Source of the DNA: Chloracidobacterium sp.
GTDB taxonomy: Bacteria > Acidobacteriota > Blastocatellia > Pyrinomonadales > Pyrinomonadaceae
Length of the DNA stretch: 46,533 nt
Reading direction: 5' to 3'
NCBI GenBank assembly: GCA_043773225.1
Contig: JAYVFJ010000146.1
Location: 1 to 46,533 of the forward strand
In this document: positions 1,036-37,778 of the stretch, one piece after another
How the letters are laid out: each line of letters opens with the position of its first letter
How positions within the stretch are numbered: position 1 is the first letter of the stretch
Notes under the pieces: model-generated
Seen by the model: the letters and a program-made list of their open reading frames with translations, nothing else
The model's database searches: none
What the model was told of the DNA's origin: nothing
Position numbers and translations under genes: made by a program

Positions 1036-4000
1036 TTATTGTTTGCCGAACAGTGAGCTTGCCGTCGCTGCAAATCGGCGCTTCAGTCCGCCGAACAGCC
1101 AATTTGCAAAACGGTTTATGTATCTAAACAGTCTCATTTCGGCGAGGTCGTCAAATACTGAGTAGAAGACGGGAACAGCAAGCAAGGTAAGCAGCAGACA
1201 CAACGTCTGTCCGCCGACAACGAGAACGCCGATTGACCGATTTGTTCCCGAACCCGCGCCGGTCGAAACAACCAGCGGAATCATTCCCGCGACAAGAGCG
1301 ATCGTCGTCATCAGGATCGGCCGCAGACGGTCGCGGTTTGCCTGTATGATCGCATCGTAGCGATTCATCCCCTGAGATCGTAGGTGATTTGTATGATCGA
1401 TCTGCAAAATTGCGTTCTTTTTGACGACACCAAACAGCAGAAGCAAACCGAGGCCGGAAAAGATATTCACCGTCTGGCCCATCACCAAAAGACTGAAAAT
1501 ACCAAATGGTATTGAAAGCGGCAGCGTCAGCAGGATCGTCACCGGATGGATAAACGATTCAAATTGCGCGGCAAGCACGATATACATAAAAATAAACGAC
1601 AGCATGAACGCAAGCATGAAGTAGAAACCGGCCTTGCCCATTTCCTTTGACTGGCCTACATAGCCGGTGCGGTAACCGACCGGAAGTTTCAATTCCTTAA
1701 CGTAGCTGTCGATCGCCGAGGTTATGCTTGCGGCGCTGCCGCCGGGCTTTGTGTTGGCGAGCAGCGTCACCTGTTTTTGCCGGTTAGTCCGGTCAATCGC
1801 GCTCGGGCCGGTTCCCGGTTTGGTCTTGACGACACGGTCGAGCGTGACCCAACCCAGCTTGGCTGACGGCACGATCATTCGCTTCAAACCCTCTTCGCTG
1901 GTGCGAAACGAATTGATCGCCCGAACGTAAACGTCATGCTGGTCCGAGCCGGCGTTAAACGTCGTCGCTTCTTGTCCCGCGACGAGTGTGTTGAGAGCTT
2001 GCGACACGTCGCCAACTCTCACGCCGAGGTCGGCGGCTGTGTCGCGGTCAACCTCGAGCCGCAATTCGGGCTTACCTGAGATGAGCGTCGTGTCAACGTC
2101 AACCGCGTCAGGTATGGTCTTCATTTTTTCGAGGATCTTTTTCGAAGTTTCCTCGAGCACCTTGATGTCCGGGCCGGAGATCAGGAACTGAACATTAGCA
2201 TTGCGAAAGCCGCCGCCGGAAAATGCCTGCACGATCTGGACGCTGGTTCGCAATTCCGGCGGAAACTTTGACAAGGTCTCACGAGCGTCGGCCATCATAA
2301 TTTCCTGTGACTTTGCACGCGTTCCGACATCACTCAATTTTACGTAGATGGTCCCGGCGTTGACGACTTGCTGCTGTCCGCCGCCCACTGTTGCGAGAGT
2401 GTCAGTGACGCCCGGCATTTTGCGAATTTCTGAAGCGATCCGCTCGAAAGACTGTGCCGAGGACGAAAGGCTTGTTCCCTCTGGCGTTCTGACCGAGACC
2501 TCAAACTGCGACTGGTCATCAACCGGCAAAAAGTTCTTGCCAACCAGCATAAAGAGCGGAACGATACTCAGGAAAACGAGAACGATAAGTGTGATTATCA
2601 CCCAACGATGCCCCATCGAGAACCGCAGCATCCACGCATAAACCGTATCCACCCGACGAAACCAACCGGTGTAATGACTGTCAGTCTTTTCGATCGCGTG
2701 CTCGGGATCAACCTTGATGTTGTCGAGGTCGGACGCAGGTTTTTTCTTTTTCTTTTTAATTAACCGTGCCGCAAGCATCGGTGTAAGCGTAAACGACACG
2801 ATCAGCGAAACACCGACAGCGAACGACGCCGTAAGGCCAAACGACGACATAAATTTGCCGACGATGCCCTGCATAAAACCAATCGGCACGAACACTGCCA
2901 TTAGCGATAAAGTCGTCGCCAAAACCGCGAGGCCGATCTCACGCGTTCCTTCAATGGCTGCCTGAAACGGGTTCATCCCTTTTTCTTCGACAAAACGATA
3001 GATGTTCTCAAGCACCACAATCGCATCGTCAATGACGATTCCGACCATGAGGGTAAGCGAAAGCATCGTGATCGAATTGAGCGTGTAGCCCATCGCGTAA
3101 ACGAGGGCAAAAGTCGAAATGATGGACGTCGGGATCGCGAGGGCCGCTATAAAAGTCGCGCGGAAATTCCACAGGAATAAGAAAACGACCAGCGACGCGA
3201 GGATCGAGCCAAGTATAAGGTGCTCCTCGATCGCATTAAGCGAGTTTTCGATGAAGATCGAGTTGTCGCCGATCACACGCATTTGGAAACCTTTAGGCAG
3301 CGTGGGTTCGATCTCCTTTAGACGCGCCTTTATCTCTCGAGCTACTGCGACCGTATTTTGCCCCGACTGTTTTGAAACGATCAACGTAACCGCCGGCTGG
3401 CCGTTTAGACGGGCCTCCGATCGGACCTCGGCGCCGCCGTCCTCCGTGTAACCAAGGTCTTTGACCTTTACCTGATAGCCGCCGCGCGTTGCGACCACAA
3501 CATCATCGAACTGTTCGGGCTTTTGTATCTTTCCGACTGTTCGTATGGCCGTTTCGGTCTGTCCCTCATCAATGCGGCCGGAGGGAAATTCCATATTCTG
3601 GATCCGCAAGGCGGCGGATACTTCGCCGGCCGTTACGTTATACGAACGCATTTTGTCGGGATCAACCCAGACGTTGATCTGCCGTTCCTGACCGCCGATG
3701 ATCGTGATCTGACCGACCCCGTTGACGGATTCGATGCGTTCCTTGACCTTGTCTTTAGCGATCTCAGTCACCTCGCGAAGCGATGCCGGTGCGGATATTG
3801 AGATTCTTAGAACAGGCGCGGCATCGGTATCGAGCTTTTGCACTGTAGGCTGTTTTGCCGTCTCAGGCAGGTTTGGAATGACCGTTTGGACGCGATTCTC
3901 GACTTCCTGCGCTGCGACATTAACGTCTTTTTCGAGTACAAATGCAACAAAAACCTGCGAGATGCCCTCGATCGAAGTGGAGCGGAGTTCGTCAATGCCG

Positions 4001-4239: not shown

Positions 4240-5547
4240 CTAGTTCATTTGCCTGACGAAAACGCCGTCGGATAGTGCATTTAGATTGCTAGTAGCGATC
4301 ATGTCGCCTTCGTTGACGCCTTGTTTCACCTGGATCATTCCGTTTTCCAGCAAACCTAATTGCACCATCTGCTGATGGGCGGCTCCGTCTTTGATGACAA
4401 AGATCGAGTTAGTTTCGCCTTCGGTTTTGACGGCTTCGACCGGCACCATCACGGCGTTTTCGGGTTTTGACTGCGTGATCCGAACCGTTGCAAACTGTCC
4501 CGGTTTTAGCAGGCCGTCGCCGTTGGCAACCTCAGCCTCGACCGTAAGCGTTCTCGCCGATACATTTAAACTCGGCGAAATGCGAACGACAGTTCCTGCA
4601 AAATTGCGTTCAGGATAGGCGCTTGTCTGCAAAGATATTCCCTGTCCGCGAGATACCTTTCCTATGGATTGCTCGGGAACGTCAATCTTCATTCGCAGAG
4701 TTGATGTCTTGACTATTGTTGCGATCTTGGAATTCGGCGTATTCGGGCTGATATACTCGCCCGGATCGGCGACGCGTTCGGCTATGTAACCGCTGATCGG
4801 TGCGTAAATAATGGTGTCCGTCAAACCTTTCTCAGCCTGTTCGACCTGTGTTTTTGCGGTCGCTACGGCTGATTTAGCCGATGCGACTTGAGCTTCGGCG
4901 GTATTGATCGCCTTCGTGGCGACCGCGGCGTTTGAGCGTGCCTCGTCCAACTGCCCTAGCAATGCGTCGCGCTGTGAACGCCTCTGATCGAGCATCGAAC
5001 GCGAAACATCGCCCGTCTCAACCAGCTTCTGTGCCCGCTGCAATTCCTTTTCGGCTAATTCCAGATTGGCCTTGACCGATTTTACCTGCGAGAACGTCTC
5101 GATATTAAACGTTTCGCCGTCCTTCACACCAAGCCGCACCTGAGCCTGTCTGAGTGCCGCGACCGCCTGGTCAACGGCCCTTTGCTGTTGCTCGACCTGA
5201 TCGCGGGCGGTTGCGAGCCTTATACGCGCGTCGCGGTCGTCGAGCCGCACAAGAACGCTGCCCTTTGTGACAAAGCTGCCGACGTCAAAGTTCACCTCGG
5301 TTATCTTGCCGCTGACCGCCGGCGCGACGTCGGTCTGAGCATCGCTCACCAGATTGCCGGTCGCTTCGAAATATGTTGGGATCTGCTTGACCACTGCCTG
5401 TGTAGTTGTCACATCAATGGTCTGCGTCTGCGTATTCGCCGAGTTTGCATTCGCCGAATTTGCGCGTGAGCCGCAGCCAAAATTCAGCAAGGCTATCGTC
5501 AACACGACGGCGATCAGTGGAACAAATACTTGACTGTTTCTTTTCAT
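4240..5547 (-). CDS. RND efflux periplasmic adaptor (membrane fusion protein, HlyD/AcrA family), lipoprotein-like
   Basis: 435 aa. N-terminal signal with LNFGCGS lipobox-like Cys, a long coiled-coil (QVEQQQRAVDQAVAALRQAQ..) and a beta-barrel C-terminus. It lies 12 nt upstream of the RND gene. Confidence 0.9.
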   Translation of the reverse strand: MKRNSQVFVPLIAVVLTIALLNFGCGSRANSANANSANTQTQTIDVTTTQAVVKQIPTYFEATGNLVSDAQTDVAPAVSGKITEVNFDVGSFVTKGSVLVRLDDRDARIRLATARDQVEQQQRAVDQAVAALRQAQVRLGVKDGETFNIETFSQVKSVKANLELAEKELQRAQKLVETGDVSRSMLDQRRSQRDALLGQLDEARSNAAVATKAINTAEAQVASAKSAVATAKTQVEQAEKGLTDTIIYAPISGYIAERVADPGEYISPNTPNSKIATIVKTSTLRMKIDVPEQSIGKVSRGQGISLQTSAYPERNFAGTVVRISPSLNVSARTLTVEAEVANGDGLLKPGQFATVRITQSKPENAVMVPVEAVKTEGETNSIFVIKDGAAHQQMVQLGLLENGMIQVKQGVNEGDMIATSNLNALSDGVFVRQMN

Positions 5548-22836: not shown

Positions 22837-25125
<2,289 letters not shown>

Positions 25126-25234
25126 TATCAAGTCGCGGCAAGGCTTGCGATGGCCTATGCAACAAGTAGGAGAAATAGCTTTTAGACACAGACGCATAAA
25201 TGCTAAACTGCCCTCTAGGATGGATAACAATGCG

Positions 25235-25459
25235 ATGAAAATAACTTTTACTGCGGTATTCCAAAAAGTGCCGGAAGGTTACATCGGCTATGTAGAAGAA
25301 TTGCCGGGAGCAAACACCCAAGGCGATACTTTAGAGGAAGCGCGCGAAAACCTTAAGGAAGCCATCGAACTGGTATTGGAAGCGAATCGCGAGTTGTCGG
25401 AAGAATCGCTCGCGGGAGCCGATGTCATTCGTGAACCGATGCAAATGGCATTTGTATGA
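25235..25459 (+). CDS. hicB: HicB-family antitoxin (short, N-terminal UPF0150-type domain only)
   Basis: MKITFTAVFQKVPEGYIGYVEELPGANTQGDTLEEARENLKEAIELVLE. The start could also be 25220. It overlaps hicA by ATGA. Confidence 0.8.
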   Translation: MKITFTAVFQKVPEGYIGYVEELPGANTQGDTLEEARENLKEAIELVLEANRELSEESLAGADVIREPMQMAFV

Positions 25460-25641
25460 AACGCCGCGACCTCGTTCGGCATTTGGAAAAGCACGGCTGC
25501 GAGATGTGGCGCGAGGGCGGCAATCACACAGTCTTTGTCAATCGCGCTAAAAGAAAGACTACAGCAGTTCCACGTCATCGAGAACTCAACGAATTTTTGG
25601 CCCGAAAAATTTGTCGCGATTTGGACATTCCAGAAGTTTAG
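25456..25641 (+). CDS. hicA: HicA mRNA-interferase toxin
   Basis: 61 aa: MKRRDLVRHLEKHGCEMWREGGNHTVFVN...VPRHRELNEFLARKICRDLDIP, matching the YcfA/HicA pattern. Confidence 0.85.
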   Translation: MKRRDLVRHLEKHGCEMWREGGNHTVFVNRAKRKTTAVPRHRELNEFLARKICRDLDIPEV

Positions 25642-25647
25642 CGATAT

Positions 25648-25936
25648 ATGGCAGAGAAATTTAGTCGATACGATACGGCCGAATACCTCGAAACTGAAGA
25701 GGACATCCGTCATTATCTGGAAGCGTGTCAGGAAGATGGAGATCCGACGCTCATTGCGGCGGCACTAGGTGACATTGCCCGCGCGCGAAATATGACCGAG
25801 CTGGCCAAATCGGCAAAAATGACAAGAGCCGGATTGTATAAAAGCACTGTCGCCGGAAGGTAATCCAAGTTTTGCCACAATAACACGAGTCGCCAAGGCG
25901 TTAGGGCTGAAAGTCAAGATTGAGTTGGCCTCCTGA
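25648..25936 (+). pseudogene. HigA-like 'addiction module antidote' HTH protein, frameshifted
   Basis: Frame 1 gives ...DPTLIAAALGDIARARNMTELAKSAKMTRAGLYKSTVAGR*. The +1 frame continues ALSPEGNPSFATITRVAKALGLKVKIELAS*. A single extra A in the run at about 25843-25846 breaks the conserved GLYKALSxxGNPxF motif. Confidence 0.7.
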
Positions 25937-25983
25937 AAGATCGATTTCGTTCCTTAGAAAATCTCTTGGAAAGAACTTTAACC

Positions 25984-26601
25984 ATGTGGATAAAGCAGTC
26001 AGCCCTAATGAAACTTATTCTTTTTTGTCTTGCGCTGCTTGGCTCGGCTTCTACGGTGTCCCCTCAAGACACAAAGCAGAAATCTATCAATCCGAAAAGC
26101 CCCTTCAATCATGACGGCAAGTTTGTCACAAAGTTTGAGGCTGACGAAAATACGACGCATGTATTTCTTGAGCCTATAATTGTCGAGTCCTCGGAATCAG
26201 CGAAAACCTCATTGAGATTAGGCGCAGATTTTCAGTATGAAGGTAAATCATCTGTTAAACCGAAGCATATATCTTTGGCGTTTTATACTTTTTACCCTCA
26301 GTGCAAATTTTCAGGCAAGCCGAAAATGACGCTGTTTCTTGATGGAGAATCGACTGAGTTCAGATTCAGCTTCAAATCATTCCGCGAAAGAAAACCAGAT
26401 GAAGAAGGCATTGCCTTTAGCTTTAATGATATTGAAGGAGATCGGTGTAATGGACTTGTGGTCATGTTCATTTCTCAAGAAAACTTTCGTAAAGTCGTAA
26501 AAGCGCGAAATGTCGACGTTCAGATTGACGACTTCAAATTCAAGTTGAAGGAGTCTAATCTTGAAGCTCTGCGTGATCTTGCAAGTCGGATGACAATGTA
26601 G
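25984..26601 (+). CDS. Hypothetical secreted protein (AT-richer than its surroundings)
   Basis: MWIKQSALMKLILFCLALLGSASTVSPQ signal peptide. I recognise no motif. The start (25966 TTG, 25984 ATG or 26008 ATG) is uncertain. Confidence 0.6.
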   Translation: MWIKQSALMKLILFCLALLGSASTVSPQDTKQKSINPKSPFNHDGKFVTKFEADENTTHVFLEPIIVESSESAKTSLRLGADFQYEGKSSVKPKHISLAFYTFYPQCKFSGKPKMTLFLDGESTEFRFSFKSFRERKPDEEGIAFSFNDIEGDRCNGLVVMFISQENFRKVVKARNVDVQIDDFKFKLKESNLEALRDLASRMTM

Positions 26602-26653
26602 GCGAAATTTCAGAATAGAATTGTTTGGTTAAATTTCAAATTTCGCAATTTTT
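26602..26653 (+). terminator. Hairpin plus T-tract terminator candidate
   Basis: gcgaaattt (26602-26610) pairs with aaatttcgc (26638-26646) and is followed by aattttta. The 27-nt loop is large for a terminator. Confidence 0.35.
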
Positions 26654-28099
26654 ATGACGTTAACAATCACCCTTCGTTTGTCCCTAATTCTTGCTGGACT
26701 GCTTTGGTTTAGTCTTGCGCCTTGTGCCGCACAAGATGGGATCACAGCCAAAGTTGACGAGTTTATCAAAAACGAAATGCAGAAACAGCATGTTCCTGGC
26801 GTGTCGTTGGCCGTCGTCCAAAATGGAAAAATCGTTCTCAGCAAAGGTTACGGCTGGGCAAATGTCGAGCATCAAGTCGCGGTAAAACCGGAGACTATTT
26901 TTCAATCCGGTTCGGTCGGAAAACAATTTACAGCAACAGCCGTGATGATGCTGGTCGAAGAGGGCAAAATAGTTTTGGACGAGAAAATCAGCAAATATCT
27001 TGGCAATGTGCCGGATGCATGGAAGAATATCACCGTGCGGCATCTGCTGACGCACACGGCTGGTTTGACCGATTATCCACGGGACTTTGATTTTCGCCGC
27101 GACTATACGGAAGATGAATTGCTCAAGCGGGAGCAGGCAATTCCCGTCGCTTTTCAGCCGGGCGAAAAATGGCAATACAGCAATATGGGTTACGTCACGC
27201 TCGGTATTTTGATTGGGAAAGTTACGGGAAAATTTTACGGTGATTTTCTGCGGGAAAGGATCTTTAAGCCATTGGGAATGACAACGACCCGCATCATCAG
27301 CGAAGCCGATATCGTGCCGCACCGTGCGGCCGGTTATAGTCTCGTTAAAGGCGAACTCAAAAATCAGGAATGGGTTTCGCCCTCGATGAACACCACCGCC
27401 GACGGCTCGCTGTATCTGACCGCGCTCGATATGGTGAAATGGGATGCCGCGCTGAACGGCGAAAAACTTTTGAAGAAAACAAGTCTCGAACAGATGTGGA
27501 CACCCGTCAAACTAAATGACGGTAAAACGTCGCCTTATGGTTTCGGTTGGGCTCTAGGCACCTTGCGTGGGCATCGCATCATCCATCACGGCGGTGCGTG
27601 GCAAGGATTCAAATCATTTATCGCCCGTTACCCGAACGACGGTTTGACCGTTATCTTTTTTGCCAATCTCAGTCAGGCAAATCCGGATATCTTTGCTCAC
27701 GGTGTCGCCGGTATTTACAATCCCGAACTCACCCCGCCATTGCCGATTTCGGATGTGATTGCGAAAACCATCGAGCAAAAAGGTATTGATGCCGCCATTA
27801 GTCAATACCGCGACCTGAAACGCACCCAACCTGACGAATATAATTTTAGCGAACCTTTGCTTAACGCCTTGGGCTATCAACTTCTCACCGGCAAAAAGCT
27901 AAAAGAGGCAATTGAGATCTTCAAACTGAACGTCGAGATGTTTCCTCAATCGTCGAACGTCTATGACAGTTTAGGCGAGGCCTACATGGTGAACGGAGAT
28001 AAAAGCCTTGCCGTAAAAAACTATGAAAAATCACTCGAATTAGATCCACAAAATACAAATGCGGCTGATATGTTAAAGAAGCTGCGAGAAAGCAAGTAG
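26654..28099 (+). CDS. Serine hydrolase of the beta-lactamase/PBP fold (class C-like) with C-terminal TPR module
   Basis: Signal peptide, SxxK (SGSVGKQFT), YxN (WQYSNMGY) and HGG (IHHGGAWQG) motifs. The C-terminal TPR-like region is [29 protein letters not shown]. Confidence 0.85.
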
Positions 28100-28111
28100 G
28101 CAGCGAAGGGT

Positions 28112-28921
28112 CTATGGTTTGATTCGATAAACACCTGTAGCCAGCCTCTCGGCAAAGCCTTCGTCAACGAGTTCGTGATTAGCCTTGCCGGATTCCCAGC
28201 GTTGGAAGCCGAATTTGCCTGAGAGTTCGCCGACTAGGGTCATTCCGCACATTTGCAGATAACAGCGGGCAAGCTCGCGGACGGCGTCTTCGCGGGGCAT
28301 TTTGATCTTTAATTCTTCGGGAAAGCGGGCTTCGGCGAGGGTCCAGATGTAGGTAAATTTTGGGACATAGACGACTTCCTGCGGCACGACCTTCATACGG
28401 CGTTGGAGTTCGTCCATTGCGGTTGTCAGGTCTTTTTTGTCTTTGAAACCGCATTCTTCGCGAAGGTCGGCGGTCGCCATTTCCCATTCTTTTCTGAGAA
28501 CTTTCAAGACCAGTTGCGCATTTTTTGACAAAATGCCTGATTCGCCTTTGCGCGAGCAACCCCAGATCGCGTTAAAGACCGGTATCATTCGCGGCGCGAG
28601 AAACCAAGATTTGCCTTTTAGCAGTTTTGCGTAATAGAGTTTGCCGCGAGCGATTACTTCGTCCTTGAGCACCCACGCGCGGCTTGCCTCGTAATCCTTC
28701 TGAACATTTCGCGGCATGTGGGCGTCGCGTCGGCCGCATACAGCAATATAAACCGACGGCATCATTTTGCGCGCGTCGGTCAGGCCGAGTGCAAAGCCGA
28801 GTTCCTCGACCAACGCCTCGACCTCTTCGGCGGAGTCGATCTTGAGCGATTCCTCACGCCGCCATTTGCGGTCGCGGTAGATCTCGATCTCCTCTGGTAG
28901 TGTTTTGAAAGAATTTGCCAC
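28112..28921 (-). CDS. Hypothetical protein (possibly winged-helix/AlkZ-YcaQ-like; unverified)
   Basis: 269-aa ORF with a GTG start and coding-like composition. The family guess rests only on overall resemblance, not on a diagnostic motif. Confidence 0.55.
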   Translation of the reverse strand: MANSFKTLPEEIEIYRDRKWRREESLKIDSAEEVEALVEELGFALGLTDARKMMPSVYIAVCGRRDAHMPRNVQKDYEASRAWVLKDEVIARGKLYYAKLLKGKSWFLAPRMIPVFNAIWGCSRKGESGILSKNAQLVLKVLRKEWEMATADLREECGFKDKKDLTTAMDELQRRMKVVPQEVVYVPKFTYIWTLAEARFPEELKIKMPREDAVRELARCYLQMCGMTLVGELSGKFGFQRWESGKANHELVDEGFAERLATGVYRIKP

Positions 28922-33528: not shown

Positions 33529-33945
33529 ATGAAACCAGATTGGCGAGAGTGTCCGCGTGGCGATGTAACCGGGCAGTGGGCCGCGCTATATGTAACGATG
33601 AACCGGCGAGGGTATATCGCGATGAGCGGCAGGACGTTCGAGAAGCTCGGCGAGCCCAAGGCTTGCAACCTGCTTTTTGACGCCGTAAACAACCGCATCG
33701 GCCTGAAACCGGCGGCGCTGGCGGCCCGCAATGCCTTCCCCGTAGCAAAACAAGGCCGCCACGGCGGACGCCTCATACGGGCCTATCGGCTGATGCAGGA
33801 ATTTGGCATAGACCTGCCCGAAACCATCCATTTCCACGACGCCGAGATAGATCAGGACGGCATCCTGATCCTCGACCTCAGAACGGCCAGAGTCTCGTTC
33901 CGCGCACTCGGCCAGGCAAAGTCGATGAAAGCGGCGTCCGGATAG
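33529..33945 (+). CDS. Hypothetical small protein (weak AbrB/SpoVT-like pattern)
   Basis: 138-aa ORF. The start could be the internal MNRRGY. It has a degraded paralogue at 31261. The family guess is weak. Confidence 0.55.
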   Translation: MKPDWRECPRGDVTGQWAALYVTMNRRGYIAMSGRTFEKLGEPKACNLLFDAVNNRIGLKPAALAARNAFPVAKQGRHGGRLIRAYRLMQEFGIDLPETIHFHDAEIDQDGILILDLRTARVSFRALGQAKSMKAASG

Positions 33946-34081
33946 ACGCTCAGTAGAATGATTTGATCGCGGCTTTGCCGCTCGATTTGCGGAAAAACTG
34001 TGCTTTTCCGTTGGCATATATTTATTGATTGCGGCTACGCCGCCGCACAGAGGCATCGCCTCGAAGATAGTTGGAATCTTT

Positions 34082-34272
34082 CCGGTGAAGCTGAGTTTCA
34101 CCGTAATAGAGCGGCACAGCCGCATTTTCCCCCCGTTTCGCAAGCCTGCGGAGCAGGCGGTATATTTGTAGCCACACGTGCAAACGTGTGGAACGCCATA
34201 CAAAATCAACGAGCGTGCGGAGCACGCGACATTTGCCGCGTGTTCCACACGCTCGAATTATTTTGTTTGCCG
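34082..34272 (+). ncRNA. Candidate structured RNA / attenuator-like segment ending in a terminator-like stem plus U tract
   Basis: Hairpins at 34083-34103, 34111-34123, 34144-34158, 34172-34191 (GCAA loop) and 34213-34227. There is a 10-bp alternative pairing of 34185-34194 with 34242-34251. An outer stem 34210-34217/34248-34255 is followed by aattattttgttt. No coding ORF. Confidence 0.3.
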
Positions 34273-34334
34273 ATACCCCCACGTTCCGCTTCGCTTCACA
34301 TGGGGCAACAAATATGTCGGCGGCGTTGCCGATT

Positions 34335-34524
34335 TGTCGCCAACGGCGACCGACCTATAAAGCCTATGGTGAAACCATAGGATGGCGATTAAACCCACCC
34401 GGTCGCTGAAGGCGACAAACAATAGCGTCGGCATGTTGCTCCCCTTCAGGGAGCGAAATCCTATCGTTCTGCAACCCTAGGGTGAAGCACCCTAGGCTTT
34501 ATAGGTTCGTCGCCGTTGGCGACA
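34335..34524. repeat. 190-nt symmetric multi-hairpin palindromic element (MITE-like or structured RNA)
   Basis: 34-nt terminal inverted repeats, tgtcgccaacggcgaccgacctataaagcctatg and cctaggctttataggttcgtcgccgttggcgaca, pair at 31/34. Internal hairpins: 34364-34381, 34402-34416, 34439-34453 and 34476-34496. Confidence 0.6.
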
Positions 34525-34710
34525 ACAGAGTTCACAATAATATTCACCCTTGAATGTTTTTAAGAAATGTTTTTAAGTTCGGCCTGTCTTGCTCGGAAGG
34601 CTAAGGACGCGTCCCAAACACCAGACAATTGATCACGACCACAACAAAAATGGACAGCCCCACGCCGTCCTTTTCCTTTTATTCACCAATTTGAGTTTCG
34701 GAATATCTGT

Positions 34711-35714: not shown

Positions 35715-36065
35715 TCACAGCGGGAGGCGTTCGATCTTGCCGTTCCATTCGTTATCGTGGCTGCATTCGGCGATGATAACGATCTCGTTGATGGCTTGGC
35801 CGATGGGAAAGTTTTGATCTATGAGAAACAGCCCCGGCATGGGTTTGCCGGCGAGTAGTCTGGCACTGGCGTGGGTTGCCATCGTGTGAACGTCGTGGCT
35901 TAGGACGATTCGATTGTTTAAAGCAGCAAACTCAAGAATAGCCGGGTCTCGTGCGGTGCGAAGACCTACATCCTGGACCCGCACGATGTCGAGATCGGGC
36001 AACCGCCTGCGGACGCCTGCTAGCACGTATCTATTGAAGTCTTCGTCGGCTAGGAACTGGATCAT
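35715..36065 (-). CDS. DUF5615-family PIN-like putative toxin
   Basis: MIQFLADEDFNRYVLAGVRRRLPDLDIVRV..ILEFAALNNRIVLSHD. It overlaps the upstream DUF433 gene by 4 nt. Confidence 0.8.
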   Translation of the reverse strand: MIQFLADEDFNRYVLAGVRRRLPDLDIVRVQDVGLRTARDPAILEFAALNNRIVLSHDVHTMATHASARLLAGKPMPGLFLIDQNFPIGQAINEIVIIAECSHDNEWNGKIERLPL

Positions 36066-36406
36066 TTCTTCCAGTTCGGATCGGTGCCGTTCTTTCTGGC
36101 AAGGAGCATCTCGCGGGTTAGCGTTGGCGGATTTTTTGCTTTATGCTCCTTCCAAAACCGTTCCCGATCCTCTTCGTGTTTTGAAATATACGCGTCAACC
36201 TCGGCCTTGTTGTGAAGATAATACGCAATGGCGGCATGGACTTGGGCCAAAGAGAGCGAATCGTATTGATCCCGAATCTCGGCGGCATCTTCGCCGTTGT
36301 TGAAATGGTAAACAACGGTATCGAGCGAGACACGCGTGTCACCCACCTTAAAGACGCCTTCTACTACGCGAACCGGTTTTGGAATTGTGCCGACTATCGA
36401 GGCCAT
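36062..36406 (-). CDS. DUF433-domain putative antitoxin
   Basis: VGDTRVSLDTVVYHFNNGEDAAEIRDQYDSLSLAQVHAAIAYYLHNKAEVD matches the DUF433 pattern. It has an extended charged C-terminal tail. Confidence 0.8.
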   Translation of the reverse strand: MASIVGTIPKPVRVVEGVFKVGDTRVSLDTVVYHFNNGEDAAEIRDQYDSLSLAQVHAAIAYYLHNKAEVDAYISKHEEDRERFWKEHKAKNPPTLTREMLLARKNGTDPNWKK

Positions 36407-36531: not shown

Positions 36532-36578
36532 AAGGGGTTTTCTTGTATCTTATTAGAGGATTTCGCGGGAGGTTTCAG

Positions 36579-37778
36579 ATGAAAGGGAACATAAGAATTT
36601 TGCTCGTTTTGGCGGCATTTGTATTTGCATTTGCGGGCGCGGGGCTCTCGCAGGATGTTGATCCGGTTGAGCGGGCCGGCCGGTGGAAGGAGTTTAACAA
36701 ATATAATTTTGACAAGTTCAATTTCGCTAAATCAAGGCTCGCCAAAACACGCATCGCCAAGTTGAAAGAGGATGAATATGCCGACGATTTTGCTTTGCTG
36801 CGCGGGGTTGTGTTTGGCAAGCGCGGGCGTGTTTTTAAGGAACGCTCGATACAGGACTATCTTGAGAAGCAGGCTTGGTATAAGCCGAATCCGAAATTTA
36901 GCAATGCTGTTTTGACGACTGTCGAGAGGGCAAATCTCGATCTGATACGTCTCGCCGAGGCTGAAAAGCATCCGTTTGTCGAACCCGGAGACATGCGCAT
37001 CTGGAAGGTGAAACTTATCACCGACGACAATCTGCGCGATTACAGCGGCGCAGAGTTGACGATTCTGATCGGCGAGATCGAGGCGATTCACGGCAAGCCT
37101 TTTTCGGAAGAGTGGCTGCAGAAATATTTTGACGAGCGATATTGGTATAAGAAAAATCCTGCCTACGACGCGGCGGTGCTGACCGAGACCGAACGCAAAA
37201 ATATCGAGCGGCTGACAACCGAAAAAGAAAAGAACCGCAAGACCGCCATCTCGATCGGCGATATGGGTAATTTTCAAACTGTTCTGCTGACCGAGGACAA
37301 GCTCGCCGGTTTGAGTTTGAATGAGCTGCGGATATTGCGCGAGGAATTTTACGCGCGGCGCGGCAAGAAATTTGACGCACCGGGCATTCGCGATTATTTT
37401 ACCTGGCGCGACTGGTATCGGCCGGCAAAGAATCAGAAGGCCATCAAGCTGAACGCGACCGAGCAGAAGAATGTCGATCTACTCGCCTCATACGAAGCGA
37501 AGATACGCGAGTGGCTCTCGACAAATCCTGTCACCGACGAAACGCTCGGCTTTCTATTTGCCGAGGATCTTCGAGTTCTGAGAAACGAGATCTACGCCCG
37601 GCACGGCCGCGTGTTCAAGGACAAGCAACTGCAAAAATACTTTGAGACGCAATCGTGGTATAAAGCTGATCCGGAATTCATGGACGATCAGCTAAACGAG
37701 ATCGAGGTCCAGAATCTGGCAAAGATAAAAGAGGCCGAAGAAACCGCGACAAGCAAGTTCGCGGAAGCCGAGGGCTGA
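36579..37778 (+). CDS. Secreted YARHG-domain repeat protein
   Basis: Signal peptide MKGNIRILLVLAAFVFAFAGAGLSQ after a GGGAGG RBS. Repeated modules end in FYARRGKKFD and IYARHGRVFKD...WYK. Confidence 0.85.
   Translation: MKGNIRILLVLAAFVFAFAGAGLSQDVDPVERAGRWKEFNKYNFDKFNFAKSRLAKTRIAKLKEDEYADDFALLRGVVFGKRGRVFKERSIQDYLEKQAWYKPNPKFSNAVLTTVERANLDLIRLAEAEKHPFVEPGDMRIWKVKLITDDNLRDYSGAELTILIGEIEAIHGKPFSEEWLQKYFDERYWYKKNPAYDAAVLTETERKNIERLTTEKEKNRKTAISIGDMGNFQTVLLTEDKLAGLSLNELRILREEFYARRGKKFDAPGIRDYFTWRDWYRPAKNQKAIKLNATEQKNVDLLASYEAKIREWLSTNPVTDETLGFLFAEDLRVLRNEIYARHGRVFKDKQLQKYFETQSWYKADPEFMDDQLNEIEVQNLAKIKEAEETATSKFAEAEG

Follow-up and report, generated by a model that had tools for sequence, protein, structure and literature searches.

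The element at positions 34334-34525 of a 46,533-nucleotide stretch of Chloracidobacterium sp. DNA (assembly GCA_043773225.1, contig JAYVFJ010000146.1; hereafter the window) is, with good probability, a gene-less and non-autonomous mobile repeat of the Blastocatellia/Pyrinomonadaceae, which would be mobilised in trans by a Y1 transposase. It resembles both doublets of repetitive extragenic palindromic sequences (REP doublets, or REPINs) and MITEs (transposable elements of the miniature inverted-repeat type). The initial annotation of this region had reported a symmetric multi-hairpin element and proposed two readings, a structured RNA with a multi-way junction or a MITE-like non-autonomous element. 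The second of these was borne out in substance, since the element belongs to a dispersed family, of which 93 full-length copies were recovered in relatives, and there is a parent unit with a transposase gene between the same ends. The observation is real and the element well defined; among bacterial mobile DNA it is of an ordinary type, and it is not a structured RNA gene.

The window contains a single element, and neither further copies nor solo arms were detected in its 46.5 kb with a fuzzy pattern or with nhmmer. The match of the element to the family profile was full-length, with 142 bits on the plus strand vs 103 on the minus strand. Its terminal inverted repeats (TIRs), located by repeat search at 34334-34371 and 34488-34525, are 38 nt long and 92% complementary, slightly longer and better than the 31 of 34 paired positions reported initially. 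Six local hairpins, H1 to H6, are distributed along the element (Table 1). The four internal ones reported initially are all present, the first of them beginning one base off the position given; in the same way, the GTCGC/GCGAC stem does occur three times, as the 15-nt palindrome GTCGCC/T-NNN-GGCGAC, and the terminal loop has 3 nt (AAC) instead of the NNNN annotated. By comparison with the rest of the family, H2 of the window is a shortened version of a hairpin of about 36 nt, CCTAGGGT...ACCCTAGG, with a compensated change of G·C to T·A in an alignment of 20 copies (A1). The columns of the linker next to H1 are invariant or nearly so in A1, and this linker was the basis of the search pattern used below. 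None of the open reading frames (ORFs) overlapping the element (58-126 aa) had a Pfam match.

The predicted minimum free energy of a 201-nt stretch was -102.4 kcal/mol on the plus strand and -106 on the minus strand, against -57.5 and -62.3 in shuffled sequences, which corresponds to z values of -10.0 and -9.9, and none of 200 shuffles folded equally well. Considering that both strands fold equally, this is the signature of a DNA palindrome and, taken alone, it is uninformative about RNA.

A pattern of 18 bases from the arm, for which 0.00 matches were expected in shuffles, was scanned over one genome per species. It gave 41 loci, 39 of which were in about 20 metagenome-assembled genomes (MAGs) of Acidobacteriota (Pyrinomonadaceae, Blastocatellia, 'Chloracidobacterium'), several per genome; one of the 39 is in a bin labelled Ferruginibacter, and the remaining 2 look like chance matches. 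In soil and rhizosphere metagenomes at least 120 loci had the arm pattern. No match was found in viral contigs with the pattern, nor in plasmid or phage records with the element. A profile built from the first copies recovered, in the loci fetched, 93 full-length elements without gene, 180-267 bp long with a mode at 205-225 bp. All of them have the identical set of six hairpins in the same order and with consistent polarity, the median difference between orientations being 37 bits. The boundaries are sharp, with GTCGCC at the start in 85 of 93 copies and GGCGAC at the end in 90 of 93; beyond these limits the copies have unrelated sequences. No target-site duplications were found at the junctions of 21 paired elements, and the left flanks were weakly biased to TTYTT and the right ones, in mirror image, to AARAA. 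Of the 45 copies whose gap could be classified by rough ORF-based classes, 44 were in tandem (30) or convergent (14) gaps and 1 in a divergent one. The copies are frequently close to assembly breaks: for 33 of 93 the contig ends no more than 400 nt away, and at the window locus the Logan contig stops inside the element.

The origin of the repeat was apparent from the loci in which the same arms, here about 650-680 bp apart, surround an ORF of 147-149 aa (L002, L011, L030, L038, L039 and others; L numbers denote the loci, L001-L041 being those of the genome collection). Matches to this transposase were obtained by tblastn at 40 loci, with the gene (tnpA) between or beside the same arms. The protein matched Pfam Y1_Tnp (PF01797) with 87 bits (cutoff 23) and the NCBIfam family IS200/IS605 (NF033573) with 65 bits (cutoff 55). 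The nearest solved structures were TnpA of the ISHp608 and ISDra2 type, whereas no match to E. coli TnpA-REP was obtained in the PDB at E<=1. In 24 homologues of 147-149 aa, with 62-97% identity, the HuH histidines, a WQ pair and the catalytic tyrosine were invariant or nearly so; the HuH motif is DHIH, in a few cases NHIH or NHSH, and the tyrosine motif is Y-x3-Q-K-x-HH (YIRDQKEHH). There is also a conserved C-terminal block, DEFRxLCxxYxVxxDERxCWD. The invariance of the catalytic motifs indicates that the transposase is under purifying selection. Some JGI records name homologues 'RayT'.

On each side of tnpA it was possible to recognise H1, H2 (in the long form given above) and H3, in mirror-image order. 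H3 is located directly upstream of the start codon, and the equivalent of H4 comes after the stop codon. Since the end modules are shared with the tnpA units, the window element corresponds to two end modules joined without the gene. An element of 267 bp in L014 (2919-3185) retains the final codons of tnpA (...DERFCWD*) and is a deletion intermediate. The window copy represents a short-loop subtype of 188 nt in which both H2 and H5 are shortened. A sister copy with the same short H2 and H5 is found in L072 (118-305), with 92% column identity to that of the window in a pairwise alignment including flanks of about 20 nt; it directly adjoins an intact tnpA, a gene that has a complete short element on either side, the two being inverted.

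The distribution of the unit among genomes was also informative. In L002, L030 and L011 the tnpA unit is at one syntenic locus, although the flanks are just 72-76% identical, and the tnpA-bearing loci of the genome collection each come from a different assembly, one apiece. Between units of different genomes the protein identity was 55-97%. Short copies too are found at orthologous sites (L035/L037, L040/L041, and L004/L023 with the same truncated right end); in L035/L037 the flanks are 81-82% identical and the element 76.5%, with compensated stem changes in place. Decay and loss were observed as well, with a truncated tnpA in L009 (553-900) and, in L008 (5129-5183), a unit cut to about 55 nt of one arm; this unit is intact in L038 in spite of 94% identity between the flanks of both loci. 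These data indicate a long vertical persistence of the tnpA unit and of the short copies with occasional loss, a pattern described for REPINs and REP-associated tyrosine transposases (RAYTs) and unlike that of ordinary insertion sequences (PMC5581495).

We also analysed how the hairpins are conserved. In A1 the six local hairpins were 97.8% paired and 13 of 39 pairs were changed on both sides, a level of covariation that 0 of 500 shuffles reached, and partners displaced by sliding paired in just 27-43%. In the 93 copies, 3,516 of 3,587 stem cells (98%) were Watson-Crick and full swaps were frequent. The six pairs of H1 are essentially invariant, with swaps of C·G to T·A at the innermost one, and its loop, AAC or AAA, co-varies with that of H6. 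H2 shows A·T to G·C and other compensated swaps. In H3 the covarying pairs were T·A/A·T (71/19) and G·C/C·G (57/30), and in H4 the fifth stem pair, fully compensated, was C·G in 42 copies, G·C in 41 and T·A in 7. The mismatches of the stems were G·T in 24 cells, A·C in 21 and others in 26 (binomial p = 0.77 over the 3,587 cells). An RNA made from one strand should tolerate G·U and not A·C, so the lack of wobble excess fits hairpins that act at the DNA level on either strand. The constraint on the hairpins points to the DNA level and argues against a strand-specific RNA. We prefer the local hairpins to a long arm-to-arm helix as the conserved structure; the latter was rejected, as its support is mostly sequence conservation and its covariation is weak (7 pairs vs 5.1 expected, a value reached by 42 of 500 shuffles).

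Hairpins in single-stranded DNA are the substrates of HUH Y1 enzymes, and RAYT genes have REP doublets at their sides (PMC6006769, PMC3733652, PMC5581495). A mechanism can be proposed following the IS200/IS605 and RAYT/REP paradigms, that is, IS608/ISDra2 and E. coli TnpA-REP (PMC6006769, PMC3479197). The element is composed of two inverted copies of an end module that carries three hairpins (H1, H2, H3) in about 95 nt, the same modules that in the parent unit of about 660 bp flank on both sides the gene of an IS200-like Y1/HUH protein of 147-149 aa. The short form probably arose when the gene was lost, and afterwards it spread as a doublet. The local hairpins could fold whenever the DNA becomes single-stranded, as at the replication fork, and the Y1 transposase, supplied in trans from a single or low-copy gene, may recognise the terminal hairpin together with the adjacent bases; H1 is the presumed recognition hairpin. 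Cleavage would take place at the GTCGCC boundary through the catalytic tyrosine, and the element would be rejoined elsewhere without target duplication. With the modules in mirror image, the hairpin that one end presents on the top strand would be presented by the other end on the bottom strand, like in REP doublets.

Several observations weigh against this interpretation. A transposition event, an empty site or an excision junction was seen for no copy. As for the window locus, a relative carrying an empty site was not obtained, the 78% homologue (P0002) of the 243-aa neighbour being located in L043 without synteny and with homology ending at the stop codon, and the other contigs at this locus being the source scaffold itself or ending inside the element. 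The 1-8 places found per MAG are far below the populations of classical REPs and REPINs; these are lower bounds, taking into account that the sensitivity of the exact pattern is about 39% for arms and about 63% for elements, that MAGs are incomplete and that repeats break assemblies. The TTYTT/AARAA bias of the flanks could mean that the inverted repeat continues outwards with poor conservation, or else that the target is preferred for its symmetry, and the controls used for the covariation account only partly for the relatedness among copies. L034 (7000-8000) has two tnpA units in tandem, among these loci the single case of two units in one genome, and in L017 (5889-6501) tnpA is frameshifted; the gene is therefore not strictly single-copy or stable. 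Finally, no tnpA was found by tblastn in the 46.5-kb window, and the window copy may be an immobile relic.

This last point leads to the possibility that the window copy is an inert fossil, a decaying member of the family in a source genome that has lost the cognate transposase, which we regard as possible although on balance unlikely. It agrees with the single copy in a window lacking tnpA, with the loss or replacement of the unit between relatives as close as L008 and L038, and with the absence of long loops in both H2 and H5. Nevertheless, the 92% complementarity of the arms and the six intact hairpins, including compensated changes, speak against it; besides, the short-loop subtype stands beside an intact tnpA in L072, so it belongs to a propagating lineage and is not a private product of decay, and the window covers just part of a source scaffold of 84 kb. 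A host function of the copies as terminators, stabilisers of mRNA 3' ends or sites for nucleoid or topoisomerase proteins, with the same origin and with mobility secondary or extinct, seems improbable. The strong tandem/convergent bias would be in agreement with it, as would the retention of copies at orthologous sites with about 80% flank identity and compensated stems in place (L035/L037), and a tnpA that behaves like a vertically inherited host gene, as has been argued for RAYTs (PMC5581495). However, purifying selection that removes harmful insertions would account equally well for the avoidance of promoters, no T-runs come after the terminal hairpins, and in the window the neighbouring gene possesses a terminator of its own; orthologous copies diverge as fast as their flanks or faster (the values given above for L035/L037) and decay by truncation (L004/L023, L008). 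Nothing indicates that the window copy has a function of its own.

Two further explanations were considered. According to one, it would be a structured non-coding RNA gene with a multi-way junction, transcribed from one strand of the convergent gap, its hairpins being RNA helices. This was the other reading of the initial annotation and we consider it very improbable, in spite of the very stable predicted fold (z about -10), of the covarying stems and of the frequent transcription of REP-like elements that lie downstream of genes (PMC3733652). The search of the window against Rfam 15 gave 0 matches at the gathering threshold, and that of the gap at E<=10 gave noise only, its best sub-threshold matches being miRNA-like hairpins upstream of the element; the ARAGORN scan revealed neither tRNA nor tmRNA genes. 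The opposite strand folds equally well, wobble pairs are not enriched over A·C or other mismatches, unlike in functional RNAs, and the same sequence flanks the transposase gene in both orientations, with inter-hairpin sequences and H2/H5 loops that vary freely and can be deleted. Moreover, between the element and the nearest gene there is a terminator, and the element has no promoter-like site beside it. As for the covariation, which had been taken as a possible pointer to RNA, it is also expected from the single-stranded DNA substrates of HUH transposases and hence is not evidence of RNA here. The other explanation, a classical MITE derived by deletion from a DDE-type insertion sequence and moved by cut-and-paste through its TIRs, would account for a 38-nt TIR, a size of about 190-220 bp and dispersed non-coding copies. 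It is nonetheless the one to which we give least credit: direct target-site duplications were absent in 21 of 21 paired elements, the sole gene between or beside the arms, at about 40 loci, is that of a Y1/HUH transposase and never of a DDE one, and the internal hairpins are kept by compensated changes which DDE MITEs need not have. For the same reasons the element does not agree with the plain MITE of the initial annotation, conceived as dispersed copies with target-site duplications and no covariation. The positions of all the features are collected in Table 1.

Table 1. Features of the element and of its surroundings; positions refer to the window unless a locus is named.
Feature	Position	Strand	Sequence	Remarks
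Whole element	34334-34525	+ (family consensus polarity)		192 nt including weakly conserved TT...AA extension
Conserved core	34336-34523		GTCGCC...GGCGAC	188 nt
Hairpin H1	34336-34350		GTCGCC-AAC-GGCGAC	Left-arm terminal hairpin; 6-bp stem, 3-nt loop
Left arm linker	34351-34364		NN-ACCTATAAAGCC	Most conserved unpaired stretch; mirror copy at 34495-34508
Hairpin H2	34363-34381		CCTATGGT-GAA-ACCATAGG	
Hairpin H3	34402-34416		GTCGC-TGAAG-GCGAC	
Hairpin H4	34438-34454		GCTCCC-CTTCA-GGGAGC	Mirror image of H3; on the opposite strand the loop reads TGAAG
Hairpin H5	34476-34496		CCTAGGGTG-AAG-CACCCTAGG	Mirror counterpart of H2, likewise shortened
Hairpin H6	34509-34523		GTCGCC-GTT-GGCGAC	Right-arm terminal hairpin; reverse complement of H1
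Terminator-like hairpin and T-run	34652-34670	-		Serves the minus-strand gene 34711-35472/35550; between gene and element
REP-like repeat sites	L004 ~4240-4313; L023 ~964-1040; L008 ~5020-5128 and 5184-5230; L038 ~2979-3012			Second repeat, distinct from the element

The gap that contains the element has 765 bp, as initially annotated, and extends from the end of a 138-aa ORF (33945) to the stop codon of the minus-strand gene (34711). The window copy is located past the 3' ends of two convergent genes, a place where such insertions are tolerated. Considering that the minus-strand gene has its own terminator, the element would not be needed for termination and may lie outside that transcript. 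The description of the gap as free of ORFs holds for the element and is less certain for the left part, where two competing calls were made on opposite strands, 138 aa on the plus strand (33529-33945, Logan contig) vs 220 aa on the minus strand (33586-34248, ENA scaffold). Neither of them has a Pfam match; the 220-aa ORF is probably spurious, because its frame crosses a cluster of palindromes and it has no Pfam match. This second cluster of nested palindromes, at 33990-34333, gave a z of -7.6 when folded as single-stranded DNA, and its large hairpin at 34200-34266 was the one that produced the miRNA-like sub-threshold matches in Rfam. A segment of 47 nt (34142-34188) matched an intergenic spot of L043 (8800-8846) at 87%, and the cluster may be another small repeat family.

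Other observations concern the vicinity of the arms. To the right of the element, about 23 nt (34524-34546) are common to the window copy and to L072 (95-117), AACAGAGTTCACAATAATATTC vs AACAGGAGTTCACGATCATATTC, and were found in no other copy; this stretch could be a co-mobilised flank, a common target or a remnant of orthology. A perfect direct repeat of 12 nt, AATGTTTTTAAG, follows at 34553-34577 in two copies 13 nt apart. On the left side, a different REP-like repeat (GAACCGCGAGCGGTAGCGACCGGTTTCTT / GTACCGGGAGCGGCAGCGACCGGGTTCT) was present in several genomes as 2-4 tandem copies directly outside the left arm (Table 1), which suggests insertion beside a second repeat family or targeting by it. 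Regarding the genes around, beyond the neighbouring gene there is a DUF433/DUF5615 pair (35715-36406), likely a module of the toxin-antitoxin type, and then a protein with a YARHG domain (36543-37778); together with HicB-like genes further to the left, they fit an accessory content around the element. L005 is syntenic with the window genes at 23560-25125 and 28126-28906, with 75-80% nucleotide identity, and between them it has a short element in a convergent gap of 0.9 kb (1257-2156). Instead of this gap the window carries about 3 kb (25125-28126) with HicB-like/toxin-antitoxin genes and a gene of the beta-lactamase family, and the site appears to be a variable hotspot.

The family enzyme was compared, by motif table only, with subclass 1.2 of the TnpA-Y1 proteins, for which Quentin et al. 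2018 (PMC6006769) gave a median of 148 aa and the motifs DH[IV]H, WQ and Y---Q--HH (YIKNQKEHH). The same authors described this subclass as low-copy, without properties of insertion sequences, 'REP: no', and mostly from Cyanobacteria and Bacteroidetes. The protein of 147-149 aa shows all the tabulated key features; it has in addition a conserved C-terminal block and a copy number per genome that appears to be low, and the family is likewise devoid of the same-strand subterminal hairpins of IS200 type. By contrast, the family genes are in Acidobacteriota and are flanked by inverted hairpin modules which form dispersed repeats; since the absence of repeats and the taxon range are descriptive traits of the subclass and not its definition, this is a difference and not an exclusion. 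On these bases we advance, as a tentative idea in which our confidence is limited, that the Y1 enzymes of subclass 1.2 may be the replicases of their own REPIN-like doublets of six hairpins, co-inherited vertically with a single syntenic tnpA locus across the Blastocatellia. If true, the RAYT-REPIN lifestyle would have originated a second time, independently, within the IS200 class, with a composite end of three hairpins vs a single REP, and the orphan subclass would gain a concrete DNA substrate for biochemical tests. No later paper that links subclass 1.2 to repeats, or that deals with repeats of Blastocatellia, was found in the literature searched.

What is new here is modest, a subclass published as repeat-less being now tied to a repeat with the terminal hairpin GTCGCC-AAC-GGCGAC. 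For annotation, a candidate structured RNA is replaced by a repeat family which can be masked or labelled in genomes of Acidobacteriota, and which explains assembly breaks at such sites in these soil bacteria. It also supplies a non-proteobacterial case for the debate on whether associations of the RAYT-REPIN type arose more than once.

Among the known systems, the classical DDE MITE shares with the element the 38-nt TIR at 92%, the size of the copies and the lack of an ORF supported by Pfam, and differs in having target-site duplications and in a parent unit that encodes a DDE enzyme instead of a Y1/HUH one (PF01797). IS200/IS605 elements (IS608, ISDra2 and gene-less derivatives) contain the closest relatives of the family enzyme in sequence and structure, and they also have hairpin-dependent ends, insertion without target duplication and, in the case of IS200, a unit of about 0.65-0.7 kb. 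However, their ends are not inverted repeats and both hairpins are read on the same strand, whereas the family has mirror modules of about 95-100 nt with TIRs of 36-38 nt; in addition, they are multi-copy, near-identical and horizontally mobile, whereas the family unit appears to be low-copy and is syntenic across diverged genomes. Two other groups of Y1 proteins with acidobacterial members were rejected on motifs, namely class 3 (CnGA-footed; NHVH, W[TA], Y----Q) and the acidobacterial TIRYT group (TIRs GGGGWSAS, mostly subclass 2.1).

The TIRtrons or TIRYTs (Di Nocera et al. 2013, PMC3733652) are mostly of subclass 2.1, with longer proteins that have an HTH C-terminus and with TIRs that in most cases contain GGGGWSAS. 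They resemble the family in having a Y1 gene between long TIRs, some of them partly self-complementary, which are also moderately abundant repeats, often as dimers, and a group specific of Acidobacteria has been described; the family protein, on the contrary, has 147-149 aa and a tyrosine motif of class-1 type, and the arms start with GTCGCCAACGGCGAC without GGGGWSAS. Bertels et al. 2017 (PMC5581495) described a 'RAYT-like IS200 Group 3' whose members have no duplicates and whose flanking 16-mers are abundant, and it may be conjectured that the family clade is the same.

The likeness to the REPIN-RAYT system (Bertels & Rainey 2011, PMC3116915; Bertels et al. 2017, PMC5581495) is extensive. In both, a non-coding doublet of inverted palindromic modules is dispersed extragenically, and the same modules flank a Y1/HUH gene, which in the family too appears to be low-copy and occupies a conserved syntenic locus in different genomes; in both, the copies are chromosomal, located downstream of genes and without target duplications, and those of the family were missing from the collections of plasmids, phages and viruses that were searched. 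The differences are that the family enzyme is not a class-2 TnpA-REP, its tyrosine motif being YIRDQKEHH and not YIxxNP; that a GTAG/GTGG foot is lacking, with T/C-rich bases (TTYTT) 5' of H1; that the module has about 95 nt and three hairpins vs a single REP of 20-40 nt; that local hairpins are kept instead of one long hairpin of the doublet; and that the copies appear to be units to tens per genome, vs hundreds of REPINs. The family therefore lies outside the RAYT clade and lacks both the GTAG foot and the same-strand hairpins of IS200/IS605; functionally, it is like a REPIN-RAYT or TIRtron system.

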